Virus record (IMG/VR): IMGVR_UViG_3300043823_000198
Coordinates: 64,001 to 128,000 of that record
From: a virus
DNA length: 64,000 bases
Strand: one strand, 5' to 3'
How positions within the stretch are numbered: position 1 is the first letter of the stretch; every line of letters begins with the position of its first letter. Below the pieces are notes generated by a model. It was not told where the DNA came from. It worked only from the letters and a program-made list of their open reading frames with translations, and searched no databases. A program made the translations under genes and the position numbers. Of the stretch, positions 1-5,295 are shown one piece after another.

Positions 1-608
1 CTCTTGGTTTAGTTATTGGTACCAACGTTCAGGCTTATTCATCAAATTTGGCGGCAACATCTAGTGTTTCTTCTGGTATTATCGCAATGCAAGGAACAGG
101 ATCTGCTTCTGGTGTAACAATCACGGCTGGCTCTGGTATCTCTGTTTCTAACGGTAACGGTGTTGGTGGTAACCCAACTATTTCTGCAGCTGTTACATCT
201 GTTCAGGGTATGACTGGCGCAGTTTCTGTTTCTGTTCCTGTTACTTCTGTTCAGGGTATGACTGGAAATTTGACAGTTACTAATATTTCTGGTAGTGCTG
301 GATACGCATCTTCAGCTGGATACGCATCTTCAGCTGGATACGCATCTTCAGCTGGTGGTGGATGGCCAGGTGCGTTATCATCATTCCATAATAACTTGGG
401 TAACTATGGTGGATGGGTTCCGCATGGAAATAAGGGAACTGGCAACAACCCTAGCAATGCATGGGGGCGTAACGCTGGAGCATATAATCATGGTCATATT
501 CCTGGTTCTCACCACTCATATAACTGTCACAATCAAATGCATTTAGACACAGGTCAAGGATTGGATCACTATCACCATTTCATTAATTGCAGAAATTGTA
601 ACTGCTAA
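1..608 (+). CDS. Tail fibre-like protein, 5'-truncated by window; His-rich C-terminal tip ending NCRNCNC
   Basis: Frame is open from position 3 (LGLVIGTNVQAYSSNLAATSS...), so the listed TTG at 48 is not the true start; Gly/Ser/Thr-rich with VTSVQGMTG x2 fibre-type repeats; last ~83 aa contain 11 His and 4 Cys. Confidence 0.7.
   Translation, partial: LGLVIGTNVQAYSSNLAATSSVSSGIIAMQGTGSASGVTITAGSGISVSNGNGVGGNPTISAAVTSVQGMTGAVSVSVPVTSVQGMTGNLTVTNISGSAGYASSAGYASSAGYASSAGGGWPGALSSFHNNLGNYGGWVPHGNKGTGNNPSNAWGRNAGAYNHGHIPGSHHSYNCHNQMHLDTGQGLDHYHHFINCRNCNC
297..355 (+). repeat. Perfect 18-bp tandem repeat GCTGGATACGCATCTTCA x3 (+5 bp), encodes AGYASS x3
   Basis: Read directly; forms a linker immediately before the His/Cys-rich tip. 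Confidence 0.95.
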
Positions 609-618
609 GGAATAATAA

Positions 619-1551
619 ATGTCAATAAAATATGTAACCCAGAAAGTTGACCCATTAAGATTATCGTATCCAGGTAGATATGGAACACAGTCGTTTGTTT
701 CTCAATCGTATGTCGATCAAACCACAGATCCAACATCAACATTTGAAGCTCAACTTAATACACCACAAGCGCAAAGAAAAACGACAACATCGAATTGGCA
801 TACTACTCCAATTCAATTTGAGTATAAATTTGATACTGTTGATGCAAATAACATTCAAGTTACATTCACAAATGTAACTGAGAATAAAATATTTTTCACA
901 TATATTATTAATTTTACTCAAACTCTTCTAAATACATTTGTTGCACAGACAGTTTATGGAGTAGCAACAGAGTATCATGCAGAAAATAATGGCAAAACAG
1001 AAGTTGTAAGTCCTGGAGATATTGTTAATTATTCTGATACTACATTTTCAACCAAAGATGAAGCGCCACATTTTGTTGGTAAATCTATTGTAAAATTCTT
1101 TTGCACAAAAAATAATCCAACAATCAATGATTTGATTTTTATGGTTTATGCTCCAGTGGCACCAAATGATCCTTCTGCGCCAAATACATATGGCGCACAA
1201 AATGTAGATCCAACATGGGCGCCACATACTATAACAGTCGATGGAACTGCAATTGATTCGACTTCTTTCGTAAAAGAAATTGCTTCTATTAAAGATTTAT
1301 TATATCCAATCACAACTTCTTACACTACTTCTGGAAATGTTATTACAGTTAATGTTACAACAAATCCAGCAATTACAGAAGTATATTTAAGTTCTACTGT
1401 TGGATATATTGCTAAGACTGTAGTTCCAATAACAAATGGAACTGGAACATTCAATGTTGTTACTACTGGCTTAAATTCTGGTGATGTTGTTAATGTTAAA
1501 ATTGGTTATAAATATTGGAGTAACGTAGTTACTTTTAATACAACAATCTAA
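619..1551 (+). CDS. Hypothetical protein, Thr/Val-rich beta-sandwich-like C-terminus; candidate partner of the radical SAM enzyme
   Basis: 310-aa ORF, AAGGA SD at ~607-611, 10 nt after fibre stop. Confidence 0.6.
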   Translation: MSIKYVTQKVDPLRLSYPGRYGTQSFVSQSYVDQTTDPTSTFEAQLNTPQAQRKTTTSNWHTTPIQFEYKFDTVDANNIQVTFTNVTENKIFFTYIINFTQTLLNTFVAQTVYGVATEYHAENNGKTEVVSPGDIVNYSDTTFSTKDEAPHFVGKSIVKFFCTKNNPTINDLIFMVYAPVAPNDPSAPNTYGAQNVDPTWAPHTITVDGTAIDSTSFVKEIASIKDLLYPITTSYTTSGNVITVNVTTNPAITEVYLSSTVGYIAKTVVPITNGTGTFNVVTTGLNSGDVVNVKIGYKYWSNVVTFNTTI

Positions 1552-1571
1552 TTTAAACAACTTGGAATGAT

Positions 1572-2963
1572 ATGGCGAAATTTGTTATAACTGTAAAACA
1601 CCCTGAAAAAGATGAACTTAAAAAAGTAGTATACGACAGCTCCATCAGTACCTTAACATGGGAAGATGGAACTCCTGTTGTAGAAAATACTCTTACTCAA
1701 GTAGAAGTTCAAAACCCTGCTAAAATTGAAAATGGAAAGAAAGACCTAAAGACTGTAAAAATACAGCTAGGTCTTTCATGCAATTTTGAATGCGATTATT
1801 GTAATCAGAGATTCGTACCTCATGCAGATTCAACTAATCCAGAAGACGTTCAGCCGTTCGTTGATAATATGTCTTCATGGTTTCCAGGTGGGAGGGATGG
1901 TTTAGGCAATGGTACTAAAATTGAATTTTGGGGAGGAGAACCATTAGTTTATTGGAAAACTCTAAAACCATTGGCAGAAGCATTAAGAGAAAAATATCCA
2001 AATGCAATTTTTGGTATAGTAACAAATGGTAGTTTGTTAGATTCAGAAAAAAATGCATGGTTAGACAGACTTGGTTTTGGAGTCGCAGTTTCTCATGATG
2101 GTCCAGGTCAATTTGTTCGAGGACCAGACCCTCTACTAGACGAATTATCAAAATCTGGAATTATTGAATTATATAAAATTCTTGCGCCTAAAGATAGGTT
2201 TACATTTAATTCTATGATCAACTCTAAAAATATTAGTAGAGCTGATATTGAACAGTTTTTTGTAAAATTTGTATCAGAAAATATCGGAGAAGAATATCTT
2301 GAATATTTAATAATTGGAGAGGGCGGTTTCGTTGATGCTTATGACGAAGGTGGAATGGCTAATTCTTTATTAGACGAAGAAGAAGATATTCGATATCGAA
2401 ATATTGCATTAAATGATCTTCGTTCTGGAAATGTAAAACGATTTGAAGTTATACAAAGCAAATATCATGAGTTTGCTAATACAATTATGAATGGTATTCG
2501 AATAGAATCAGTTCCACAAAAATGTGGTATGGACAAATCTAATCAGATGGCAGTTGATCTAAATGGTAATGTTCTGACATGTCAGAACGTCAGTGCTGTT
2601 TCTAATAATCCAGCAGGAGTTTCACATAAAATTGGACATGTTTCTGATTTATCTTCTGTAGAATTAAAGACAGCCACTCATTGGAGCGATAGAAGCGAAT
2701 GCCCAAACTGCCCAGTAGTTCATATATGCAAAGGAGCATGTATGTTTCTCAGTGGTGATCTTTGGGAAGCGAGTTGTAACAATGCGTTTAGCGACAATAT
2801 TTTAATATTCACTCTTGCTATTGAAGATGCTACAGGTGGTTGGATTCCAGGATATATTGATGGTCCATTAAGGGAAGATAGAAAAGATATCTACTGGTGG
2901 ATCAACGGTAAGCCAGAAAAAACACGAAAAGCAAAGAAATTTATTCCTATAATGGCGGTTTAA
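1572..2963 (+). CDS. Radical SAM protein with C-terminal SPASM domain (anSME/peptide-maturase-like)
   Basis: CNFECDYC (CxxxCxxC), FWGGEPL, TNG, SHDG motifs; C-terminal KCGMD...TCQN...CPNCPVVHICKGAC...C. Confidence 0.92.
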   Translation: MAKFVITVKHPEKDELKKVVYDSSISTLTWEDGTPVVENTLTQVEVQNPAKIENGKKDLKTVKIQLGLSCNFECDYCNQRFVPHADSTNPEDVQPFVDNMSSWFPGGRDGLGNGTKIEFWGGEPLVYWKTLKPLAEALREKYPNAIFGIVTNGSLLDSEKNAWLDRLGFGVAVSHDGPGQFVRGPDPLLDELSKSGIIELYKILAPKDRFTFNSMINSKNISRADIEQFFVKFVSENIGEEYLEYLIIGEGGFVDAYDEGGMANSLLDEEEDIRYRNIALNDLRSGNVKRFEVIQSKYHEFANTIMNGIRIESVPQKCGMDKSNQMAVDLNGNVLTCQNVSAVSNNPAGVSHKIGHVSDLSSVELKTATHWSDRSECPNCPVVHICKGACMFLSGDLWEASCNNAFSDNILIFTLAIEDATGGWIPGYIDGPLREDRKDIYWWINGKPEKTRKAKKFIPIMAV

Positions 2964-2964
2964 T

Positions 2965-3234
2965 ATGAGTTACATTGACGGATATTTGGTTGAGATAAAT
3001 CAGTTTCCAAGATTTGGAGAAAGGTTTACAATAAAAAGTTATTTCTATTACAACTCAAATACAAAAGAATATGGTTACAGGGATACAGTTATCCCAAAAG
3101 AACAAATTATAAATAATGATGATATGACGGAAGAATTAGTTGCAAACATTATAAATAATAATATACCTGCAATGAGAAGGGTCATTGACCCAATAAATTT
3201 AACAGAAAGTTGGATTTTTGAGCCAACAGCATAA
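2965..3234 (+). CDS. Hypothetical protein (89 aa)
   Basis: Starts 1 nt after radical SAM stop; fills gap to next gene. Confidence 0.55.
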   Translation: MSYIDGYLVEINQFPRFGERFTIKSYFYYNSNTKEYGYRDTVIPKEQIINNDDMTEELVANIINNNIPAMRRVIDPINLTESWIFEPTA

Positions 3235-3244
3235 GGAAAACAAA

Positions 3245-4192
3245 ATGAATTCTAAACATGTAAAATGGGTTATTGCTCACGAACCTATTGGTTTGTTTTT
3301 AAAAGTAGCCGAACATTTTGCTAAAGAAGTTAACGAAAAAACCAACGGTATGTTTAATATCGAAGTTCTTTCATTGTCTGATTATACAGCAAAATACAAT
3401 GATGGCAAAGCAATTACCAAGTATGATCTAATGGAATTGATCAATACTGGTAAGATCGAAATGAGTCACATCTATACCACTTGGCTTGGCGATTATAACA
3501 AAGATCTACATGCTTTAGATCTACCATTCCTATTCCGCGACCATGCTCATGCTGACGCTGTTTTAGAAGGTGAGGTTGGTGCTGAGTTATTAGCTGGCGT
3601 TTCTAAGAATAGCAATATCCATGCTATGTCTTTCACTTACTCTGGTGGTTATCGTGTTGTTCCAGCGAACTTCCGTGCTGACACTGTTGAGTCATGGAAA
3701 GGTCAAGCTGTTCGTACTTCTCGTTCTCCAGTTGCTGTTGAAACATTCAAGCTACTTGGCGCTGAACCAAAAGAGAACATCGCTCTAGAAGAAATGAACG
3801 AATTTGCCGATCGTGGCGAAATCGCTGCTGGTGAATCAACATACGTTCGTATTTTCCCACTCGATCAATATAAGTCGTTCAAGGTTGTTAATGACACTGC
3901 TCACAGCTTGTTCTTAACTTCTATTATTGTTAACAAAGATTTCATGGCTCAATTCGATAAGCAGACTCAAGAGATTATGGCTCAGGCTGCATTTAATGCT
4001 GCTCGTGCTGAACGTCGCGAATCTGTTGCTGATATTCCTAACATTCTTGCTGAATGTAAAGAGAAGGGTGTTGAAGTTGTTCGTATGAATGAAACCGAAG
4101 AGAAGAAATTTAAAGAGATTACTTCTAAGGTTTATGATGTCTTCGCTGATTATTTTACACCTGGACTTGTGCATAAGATCCAATTACATTAA
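3245..4192 (+). CDS. dctP: DctP-like TRAP solute-binding protein lacking a signal peptide
   Basis: ALDLPFLFRD, GGYRVV, GQAVRTS (conserved Arg), LLGAEP, TAHSLFLTSIIVNKDF, AARAER segments typical of DctP; ATG 3245 preceded by AAGGA. Confidence 0.8.
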   Translation: MNSKHVKWVIAHEPIGLFLKVAEHFAKEVNEKTNGMFNIEVLSLSDYTAKYNDGKAITKYDLMELINTGKIEMSHIYTTWLGDYNKDLHALDLPFLFRDHAHADAVLEGEVGAELLAGVSKNSNIHAMSFTYSGGYRVVPANFRADTVESWKGQAVRTSRSPVAVETFKLLGAEPKENIALEEMNEFADRGEIAAGESTYVRIFPLDQYKSFKVVNDTAHSLFLTSIIVNKDFMAQFDKQTQEIMAQAAFNAARAERRESVADIPNILAECKEKGVEVVRMNETEEKKFKEITSKVYDVFADYFTPGLVHKIQLH

Positions 4193-4209
4193 TCTGAATG
4201 ATGATAAAT

Positions 4210-4233
4210 AAAGGGAGCTTCGGCTCCCTTTTT
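4210..4233 (+). terminator. Rho-independent terminator AAAGGGAGC-TTCG-GCTCCCTTT(TT)
   Basis: Perfect stem, C(UUCG)G tetraloop, T-tract; same hairpin recurs at 28306. Confidence 0.85.
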
Positions 4234-4248
4234 ATTTTGAGGAAAATT

Positions 4249-5295
4249 ATGGAACAAGATTTTAAAGAATCAATTTTATACTATGATAAGAAGAATGTGT
4301 CTAATTTTGCGCAAAACGATTATACAAAAATTTATAGATTTTTGAATCCAATCACGGATTATAAAGTTTTTCACACATATCTAAGACTTGGTTTAATGGA
4401 ACACAATGCTGTTTATGATAGGAGTGGAGAAATCCCACACTTTCTTAATATGGCAGAAGATTTACATCCATTACCAAAACACATAGAAGGTTATAACAAA
4501 TCTTTTTATGAAGTCGCAGAAAATAGAGCAAAAGAACTACTAGCGTTAAATCAACCGATTAATGTTATGTGGTCTGGTGGTCTTGATAGCACATTCGCAT
4601 TGTTCATGTTACGTAAATTTGCAAACGACAAAGATCAAGTTCGAGTATATGGAACATATAACTCTATCATTGAATCTGGCGACATGTTCGACCGTGTCAT
4701 TAAAGATAATTTCAAATACGAGATATCAACTGCAACACGCAACGACTTAAATTTAAATTCTGAAGGAATTTACGTTAGTGGTATGTGTGGTAATCAATTG
4801 TTTGGTCCAACAGATGATATGTTTGGTAATAATATGTTATTTCATCATACACTTGGAACACCTGAAACAATTTATGAATCATATGAAAAAAATATTGATC
4901 CAGAGTTACTTGAATTTTTATATCCAGCAATTAAGGTTAGCCCAAGAAAAATTGAAACAGTTGCAGATTTAAGATGGTATTGTATATTTAATTTAGACTG
5001 GTATACAGCAATATACGAACATAAAATTTTATTACCAAAAGAAAAAGCTGAGAAAATTTATGGATTTTTTGATTCTATTGAGTTTCAGGAATGGGCTGCT
5101 AACACAAAAGAACCTTTTACAAAAGTGCAAGGAGATCCAAATACTCATCGCTGGCAAATGAGAGAGATTCTTAGTGATATTTTTGGTGAAGTTGAATATG
5201 CAAAAAATAAAGAAAAGAAAATCTCTAATTTTTCAATAACTGAACCAGGCTGGATTGCGCTTTTAGAAGATTATCGAAATGTTTTTATCGATTAA
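4249..5295 (+). CDS. PP-loop ATP pyrophosphatase / asparagine synthetase C-domain-like protein
   Basis: VMWSGGLDS and VSGMCGNQLFG (cf. SGEGADELFG) motifs; no glutaminase N-domain; ATG 4249 follows GAGGA, upstream ATGs run through the terminator. Confidence 0.65.
   Translation: MEQDFKESILYYDKKNVSNFAQNDYTKIYRFLNPITDYKVFHTYLRLGLMEHNAVYDRSGEIPHFLNMAEDLHPLPKHIEGYNKSFYEVAENRAKELLALNQPINVMWSGGLDSTFALFMLRKFANDKDQVRVYGTYNSIIESGDMFDRVIKDNFKYEISTATRNDLNLNSEGIYVSGMCGNQLFGPTDDMFGNNMLFHHTLGTPETIYESYEKNIDPELLEFLYPAIKVSPRKIETVADLRWYCIFNLDWYTAIYEHKILLPKEKAEKIYGFFDSIEFQEWAANTKEPFTKVQGDPNTHRWQMREILSDIFGEVEYAKNKEKKISNFSITEPGWIALLEDYRNVFID

Follow-up and report, generated by a model that had tools for sequence, protein, structure and literature searches.

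The window analysed here (64,000 nucleotides; bases 64001–128000 of a record of 165,633 bases, or 165.6 kb, that represents the genome of a T4-like phage) opens with three genes on the same strand, which encode a tail fibre, a 310-amino-acid (aa) partner protein and a radical S-adenosylmethionine (SAM) enzyme with a SPASM domain (Table 1). The whole fibre is 411 aa long, its gene comes after the baseplate genes in the tail module, and PHROG tail-fibre families match it with E-values of 4e-7 and 1e-6. Behind a tandem repeat, the fibre ends in NCRNCNC, hereafter the Asn-Cys ladder; the gaps to the partner (10 nt, to position 619) and to the enzyme (20 nt, to position 1572) are as an earlier inspection of the letters alone, referred to below as the sequence-only reading, had given them. 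Its count of His and Cys residues was also correct: the 84-aa tip (window positions 354–605) contains 11 His and 4 Cys, all those of the whole fibre. Enzymes of this family are encoded almost always beside a ladder-ended protein, and phages that carry both ladder and enzyme probably modify, by chemical means, the fibre tips with which they grip their hosts.

Linkage of the ladder to the enzyme

Homologues of the enzyme were gathered from cultured phages and bacterial genomes as well as from viral contigs; in the latter, candidate stretches of the family to which it belongs, phrog_1802, number at least 588. The linkage count was limited to the 133 loci with at least 3.5 kb of upstream sequence, some of which are near-duplicates. 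In 130 of these 133 loci, a protein encoded on the same strand contains an alternating (xC)n ladder, so the check proposed in the sequence-only reading, a search for Cys ladders at the ends of genes upstream of enzyme homologues, came out as it had predicted. The ladder carriers are non-homologous and range from 65 to 1082 aa. They include T4-like fibres, the side fibre of RSP15, the fibre of the siphovirus JWF and a 65-aa open reading frame (ORF) of the jumbo phage RP12, as well as tail-module fibres of prophages in Limnohabitans, Polynucleobacter, Burkholderia and alphaproteobacteria.

The smallest of these carriers, the ladder-ended ORF of Ralstonia phage RP12 (NC_041911 ~82888–83085; L043:4948–5145), is unannotated and constitutes a missed gene; it directly precedes a gene for a 295-aa protein of unknown function and three radical SAM genes. 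Three tandem ladder-ended mini-fibres of 72–92 aa adjoin the enzyme in L037 (1799–5998), L163 and L123, and L037 additionally encodes two partner paralogues and three oxygenase-like proteins. Genes resembling 2-oxoglutarate/iron (2OG-Fe) oxygenases are often found between partner and enzyme in homologous loci. The sequence-only reading had seen neither a short precursor peptide nor a sulfatase near the fibre. For the present phage this was confirmed, as no sulfatase gene was found in the genome and no ladder-bearing ORF other than the fibre was detected among those of at least 80 aa; at some other loci, short carriers do exist.

Across 105 distinct ladders, the non-Cys positions are occupied mainly by Asn (74%), followed by Asp (10%) and Ala (8%), with Gly at 1 position in 452. 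A DNA microsatellite origin, or chance, was considered for the ladder and rejected, because its codons are synonymously mixed, with AAT and AAC, and TGT and TGC, alternating. The ladder lies at most 8 residues from the C-terminus in 143 of 151 cases. Homologues of the fibre shaft end in S74 chaperones or other tips, and where such a chaperone terminates the shaft, a separate gene of 117–133 aa, usually directly downstream, carries the ladder, with the enzyme retained. In the tail fibres of four loci (L042:5670–7121, L081:3733–5262, L068:3229–4359 and L122:1–864), a Hint domain stands immediately behind the ladder. Hint domains cleave at their own first Cys, and the ladder would therefore become terminal and exposed in these fibres as well. 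A different domain, starting with KIIC, takes the Hint position in L085, where it spans about 175 aa without a Pfam match, and in L086. The terminal position of the ladder in several unrelated architectures would be in keeping with the threading of a free C-terminus by the enzyme and with a structure located at the very tip of the fibre.

Upstream of the ladder, the tip is variable. The conserved anchor that opens it is likely the junction at which modules are swapped, and the HxH motifs of the tip body behind it are possible metal sites. The His-richness that the sequence-only reading had taken as a signal is lineage-specific and lies outside the conserved signal, since the last 90 aa of homologous tips contain anywhere from 0 to 12 His; His-directed chemistry was rejected as a conserved theme for this reason. 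In the minimal tips of L154, L224, L228 and L271, the ladder follows about 10 residues after the anchor, and the variable tip body is therefore dispensable. The proposal that the modification diversifies the tip is unlikely as well: ladder and enzyme are conserved, and diversity comes from the swapping of sequence upstream of the ladder.

Table 1. Positions in the window of the cassette, its sequence elements and the genes downstream
Feature	Position	Strand	Remarks
Tail fibre, C-terminal half	1..608	+	PHROG tail-fibre matches; start of the gene 628 bases before the window, at genome position 63373
18-bp tandem repeat	297..355	+	3.3 exact copies; encodes AGYASS linker at the shaft/tip junction
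Conserved anchor LSxFxNNLGNYG	375..410	+	opens the variable tip
Hypervariable tip body	411..584	+	His-rich in the present lineage; HxH motifs
Terminal Asn-Cys ladder NCRNCNC	585..605	+	fibre residues 405–411; predicted enzyme substrate
Partner protein, 310 aa	619..1551	+	variable beta-rich N-domain and C-terminal intimin/invasin (Big-1)-like immunoglobulin (Ig) domain
T4 late-promoter consensus TATAAATA	1507..1514	+	within the partner coding sequence, 65 nt ahead of the enzyme start
Radical SAM/SPASM enzyme, 463 aa	1572..2963	+	phrog_1802; short all-beta N-terminal extension
89-aa ORF of unknown function	2965..3234	+	optional accessory; only in cassette-bearing phages
DctP-family solute-binding protein	3245..4192	+	without evident N-terminal signal peptide; optional accessory
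Asparagine-synthetase-like PP-loop ATPase	4198..5295	+	optional accessory

Enzyme, partner and downstream genes

The enzyme matches phrog_1802 at an E-value of 1e-65 and is the only radical SAM protein encoded in the phage genome. It combines a CxxxCxxC motif (1779–1802), a GGEP motif and a partial TIM barrel with a seven-Cys SPASM domain (2523–2777; Cys 318, 337, 377, 380, 386, 390 and 402) and scores above the cut-off of the SPASM domain model TIGR04085. Exactly ten Cys, three of the SAM cluster and seven of the SPASM domain, are invariant in 61 homologues (down to 33% identity). No eighth conserved auxiliary Cys was found in these homologues, and the extra Cys that anaerobic sulfatase-maturing enzymes (anSMEs) have after the first auxiliary ligand is missing. 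The full SPASM Cys array of the sequence-only reading thus consists of seven invariant Cys rather than the eight of anSME, and a role as an anSME was rejected on account of this difference and of the lack of a sulfatase gene in the genome. In CteB, SuiB and TigE, with their seven Cys, auxiliary cluster I (Aux I) keeps its fourth site free for the substrate or for another ligand (PMC10878394); for NxxcB, the proposal is that an auxiliary cluster activates the substrate thiol (PMC9389541). The Aux I site of the phage enzyme appears to be open, as in thioether synthases, and before C318 the enzyme lacks the GYW motif that cyclopropyl synthases have.

The structural model of the partner (predicted template modelling score, pTM, 0.83) is mostly beta. 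Its Ig domain (residues 228–310, window positions 1300–1548) aligns with intimin over 79 residues (Z 9.6, root-mean-square deviation 2.4). Searches with the full-length fold, on which a likeness to gp38 adhesins or Tfa chaperones was also judged, matched only the Ig domain, leaving the N-domain barely sampled, and the structural relatives of the partner are uncharacterised phage proteins. No Pfam or PHROG match was obtained for the partner, and neither it nor the small ladder carriers matched the gp38 family. Whereas a word-based search finds 1 homologue, a profile search gives 730 clusters. A member of the partner family was detected in 102 of the 133 enzyme loci, being absent or replaced elsewhere; profile comparison did not link the genes at the partner position in RP12 and L230 to this family, and in BFVD the partner matches the RP12 protein weakly (E-value 6e-3).

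The partner diverges much faster than the enzyme, with a median normalised similarity of 0.12 versus 0.63. Its similarity tracks that of the tip when shaft and enzyme are controlled for (partial r 0.32, a correlation that adjacency alone could produce), and shaft similarity is nearly uncorrelated with that of tip, partner or enzyme. Tip, partner and enzyme thus travel as a single cassette, which is probably exchanged near the anchor. The sequence-only reading had offered the partner as a recognition element or a chaperone. The first of these roles is weakened by the beta/Ig model, by the fast divergence and by the loci in which the partner is missing or replaced; it is unlikely because enzyme and motif are both conserved, and the same would be expected of an element dedicated to their recognition. 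The second is retained as one of two favoured roles, in that a tip adhesin or a tip-specific chaperone is probably the better fit, by analogy with gp38, which acts as a chaperone in T4 but as an adhesin in T2/S16 (PMC10175313).

The late-promoter consensus ahead of the enzyme has a second copy 168 nt upstream of the fibre. With 14 copies genome-wide, TATAAATA is not over-represented in the genome; only its position upstream of the enzyme is, as 27 of 32 homologous T4-like loci have a TAAATA core in the last 100 nt before the enzyme, compared with 5.5 in shuffles. The late-promoter core before the enzyme suggests that it is expressed late, together with the virion proteins. In L004–L156 (for example, L134, L038 and L025), the core forms a conserved arrangement with a strong hairpin and a T run within the 50–70 nt that precede the enzyme. 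Such a hairpin before the enzyme is absent in the present window, though usual in homologous loci.

The three genes downstream of the enzyme were found in about two-thirds of the cassette-bearing loci checked and in 0 of 12 cassette-less loci. The DctP gene is preceded by two copies of TATAAATA (3108 and 3150) and followed by a terminator-like hairpin (~4211–4232). The PP-loop protein belongs to a mostly viral family (Atlas cluster, 804 members), and it is possible that it acts as a second tailoring enzyme.

Proposed stapling of the fibre tip and the alternatives

We propose that the cassette serves a late-expressed maturation of the virion, in which the enzyme staples the fibre end by Cys-to-Asn thioethers, a mechanism to which we give an even chance. 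The phage would make a tail fibre with a distal tip ending in the Asn-Cys ladder, and the enzyme would bind the free C-terminus of this fibre before or during tail assembly. A substrate Cys thiol would be held on the open iron of Aux I while a hydrogen is abstracted from a carbon of the neighbouring Asn (or Asp/Ala), yielding thioethers, each with a loss of 2 Da, within one chain or between fibre chains. The stapled fibre end would form a rigid, redox-independent cap; the Ig-domain partner would bind the tip, sitting on it or folding it, and would travel along as a swappable host-range module, and the product would stay in the virion. It is likely, from the genomic context, that the enzyme acts on the ladder, and, if it does, a thioether is the somewhat favoured product. 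NxxcB uses Asn as acceptor and tolerates Ala, Gln and Asp (PMC9389541); the Asn/Asp/Ala composition of the ladder is close to this range, which supports a thioether. A broader version, in which many tailed phages staple the receptor-binding fibre end through a portable C-terminal tag, with Cys-Asn links between chains or onto an Ig-domain adhesin, is tentative and would hold with rather low probability.

The linkage of ladder and enzyme was also approached from the fibre. Among distinct loci chosen by the fibre N-terminus (the shaft), 24 encoded ladder and enzyme, 12 encoded neither and 0 were discordant, and no member of the enzyme family was found elsewhere on the negative contigs, most of which are fragments. 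By genomic linkage (this survey, the 130 loci above and the ladder kept terminal), the fibre C-terminus is the most likely substrate, in line with the sequence-only reading; its modification is predicted.

Several observations weigh against the proposed mechanism. In L109, L118 and L199, the enzyme is encoded without a ladder protein in range; L109 adjoins a type I secretion pair, L118 retains the partner, and the three loci are possibly remnants. The fragmentary state of the negative contigs limits the shaft-based survey, and its presence/absence pattern amounts to about 2 independent changes on the shaft tree. A Fisher p-value was therefore rejected as independent support, as it overstates a pattern of so few events; the spread of the ladder over unrelated carriers is the stronger argument, and the shaft-based pattern is supportive but modest. 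As regards the enzyme, it falls far below every NCBIfam maturase cut-off (PapB being the best, with 58 bits versus 340), including those of the SCIFF, RumMC, QhpD, YhhB, FxsB and HxsB models. The best Foldseek match of its structural model (predicted local distance difference test, pLDDT, 93.6) is the thioether synthase CteB, but anSME, ChlB and TigE match its fold almost equally well, and the residues near the active site (N/S, W, T, S, Q and N, versus F, F, T, S, H and Q in CteB) match only in part. The recognition element (RRE) of RiPPs, peptides made by ribosomes and modified post-translationally, is defined by three strands and three helices (PMC10878394). A canonical three-helix RRE is absent from the enzyme model; residues 3–30 form three strands, with no helix before the radical SAM core, and the N-terminal extension is therefore not a canonical RRE. 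The partner, with its mostly beta model and its little-sampled N-domain, was considered as a possible source of a stand-alone RRE. Finally, one internal column of the aligned tips holds Cys in 9 tips and His in 3, which suggests that some tip Cys may be metal ligands.

Part of these data would also agree with another chemistry on the same substrate, for example alpha-thioethers, Cys oxidation or desulfuration, a reaction at the backbone or the C-terminus, or a covalent bond between partner and fibre, perhaps with the involvement of the 2OG-Fe oxygenases or of the PP-loop enzyme that many loci encode. The linkage of ladder and enzyme applies to these reactions as well, the enzyme family is distinct from all curated maturases with an active-site profile that differs from that of CteB, the solved structure nearest to it in sequence is that of TigE, a cyclopropyl synthase with repeats as its substrate, and the oxygenase-like genes often stand between partner and enzyme. 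However, the residue that stays invariant in the ladder is Cys, and Aux I is apparently open as in thioether synthases, while both the GYW motif before the SPASM domain and the eighth Cys of anSME are lacking. We regard a different chemistry as possible, though on the doubtful side.

The Cys/His column also bears on a metal-binding ladder, in which unmodified Cys would hold Fe, Zn or Fe-S along the fibre axis and the enzyme would modify another target or help to build the metal site. The CxC spacing mirrors HxH, motifs of the latter kind are present in this tip, and gp37 of T4 uses HxH to bind seven irons (PMC11705849). Nevertheless, this would leave unexplained why a catalytically intact SPASM enzyme is encoded beside the ladder in nearly all enzyme loci and goes missing together with it. 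The terminal ladder Cys are never replaced by His in the aligned tips, and no other conserved candidate substrate was found, the partner being variable or absent. We consider such a ladder unlikely.

Least probable, and by our estimate very much so, is that the modified ladder is a peptide cut from its carrier, or that the small carriers are free RiPP-like products acting in the infected cell. Some carriers do have only 65–95 aa and occur in tandem triplets, like RiPP precursors (L037, L043, L123 and L163), and virion proteomics of RP31 recovered no protein from its own cluster, but with only 32 proteins detected it is too shallow to decide (PMC5468394). On the other hand, in most loci the ladder is part of a complete tail fibre, with neither a leader nor a protease gene in evidence, the small carriers lie directly behind chaperone-tipped fibres in tail modules, and the expression signals are late.

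Significance and relation to known systems

We know of no radical SAM enzyme that cross-links a virion structural protein. Literature searches returned no paper describing such a fibre-tip/radical SAM system, those on NCNCNC and phage-RiPP combinations gave nothing relevant, and papers on cultured phages mention such enzymes only as annotations. If the stapling of fibre ends is correct, an enzymatic maturation step would be added to tail-fibre assembly, RiPP-type chemistry would serve as a virion assembly step on a short portable C-terminal tag, and the widespread unexplained phage family phrog_1802 would gain a function. Such fibres may then not work when expressed without the enzyme. The carriers differ widely, and what the maturase appears to recognize on them is a short C-terminal tag, a property that would be useful for protein stapling. 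Cultured phages that carry the system (JWF, 2-1, RSP15 and RP12) make the hypothesis testable.

In its gene order, the cassette resembles the gp37/gp38 module of T-even phages, where a variable gene likewise comes after the fibre gene and moves together with the tip; loci in which the fibre is S74-tipped and a small tip gene stands apart share this arrangement. The two differ in the second protein, as the partner, with its Ig-like domain, has no match to the gp38 family, and to our knowledge no maturase enzyme is encoded in T-even fibre modules. QhpD, the maturase of the gamma-subunit of quinohemoprotein amine dehydrogenase, is a SPASM enzyme that introduces several thioethers into a subunit kept in a larger complex. 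Its acceptors are Asp and Glu and its product is a periplasmic enzyme; the corresponding model, TIGR03906, matches the phage enzyme weakly (44 bits versus a cut-off of 453). The anSMEs share the SPASM fold and act on a protein Cys, but they have the extra Cys after the first Aux I ligand that the phage family does not. In the cyclopropyl synthases TigE and TvgB, the GYW motif provides a Tyr ligand to Aux I (PMC10878394), whereas the phage enzyme lacks this motif. A conserved aromatic-x-x or His-x-Ser substrate motif, as in triceptide and His-Xaa-Ser systems, is lacking in the phage tips, across which His is not conserved.

Closer parallels are found among the ranthipeptide maturases CteB (SCIFF, PDB 5WGG/5WHY) and PapB (freyrasin), which, like the phage enzyme, join a radical SAM core to a seven-Cys SPASM domain and have a Cys-rich repeat substrate encoded next door. 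Their substrate is a leader-core peptide, while that of the phage would be a structural fibre end with Cys at every second residue. The phage case differs from ranthipeptide and sactipeptide systems in that the fibre, not a short precursor, is the one ladder carrier among its ORFs of at least 80 aa, in that the enzyme model has no canonical RRE and in its scores below the model cut-offs, although short carriers exist at some other loci. With NxxcB/NxxcA, the streptococcal system that forms a Cys-Asn beta-thioether, the likeness concerns substrate features: the NCNC of the phage ladder contains the NxxC spacing, NxxcA being a short secreted peptide with a single cross-link and the phage substrate a fibre end. 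By analogy, the phage system would resemble a ranthipeptide or an NxxcB system in the way it works.

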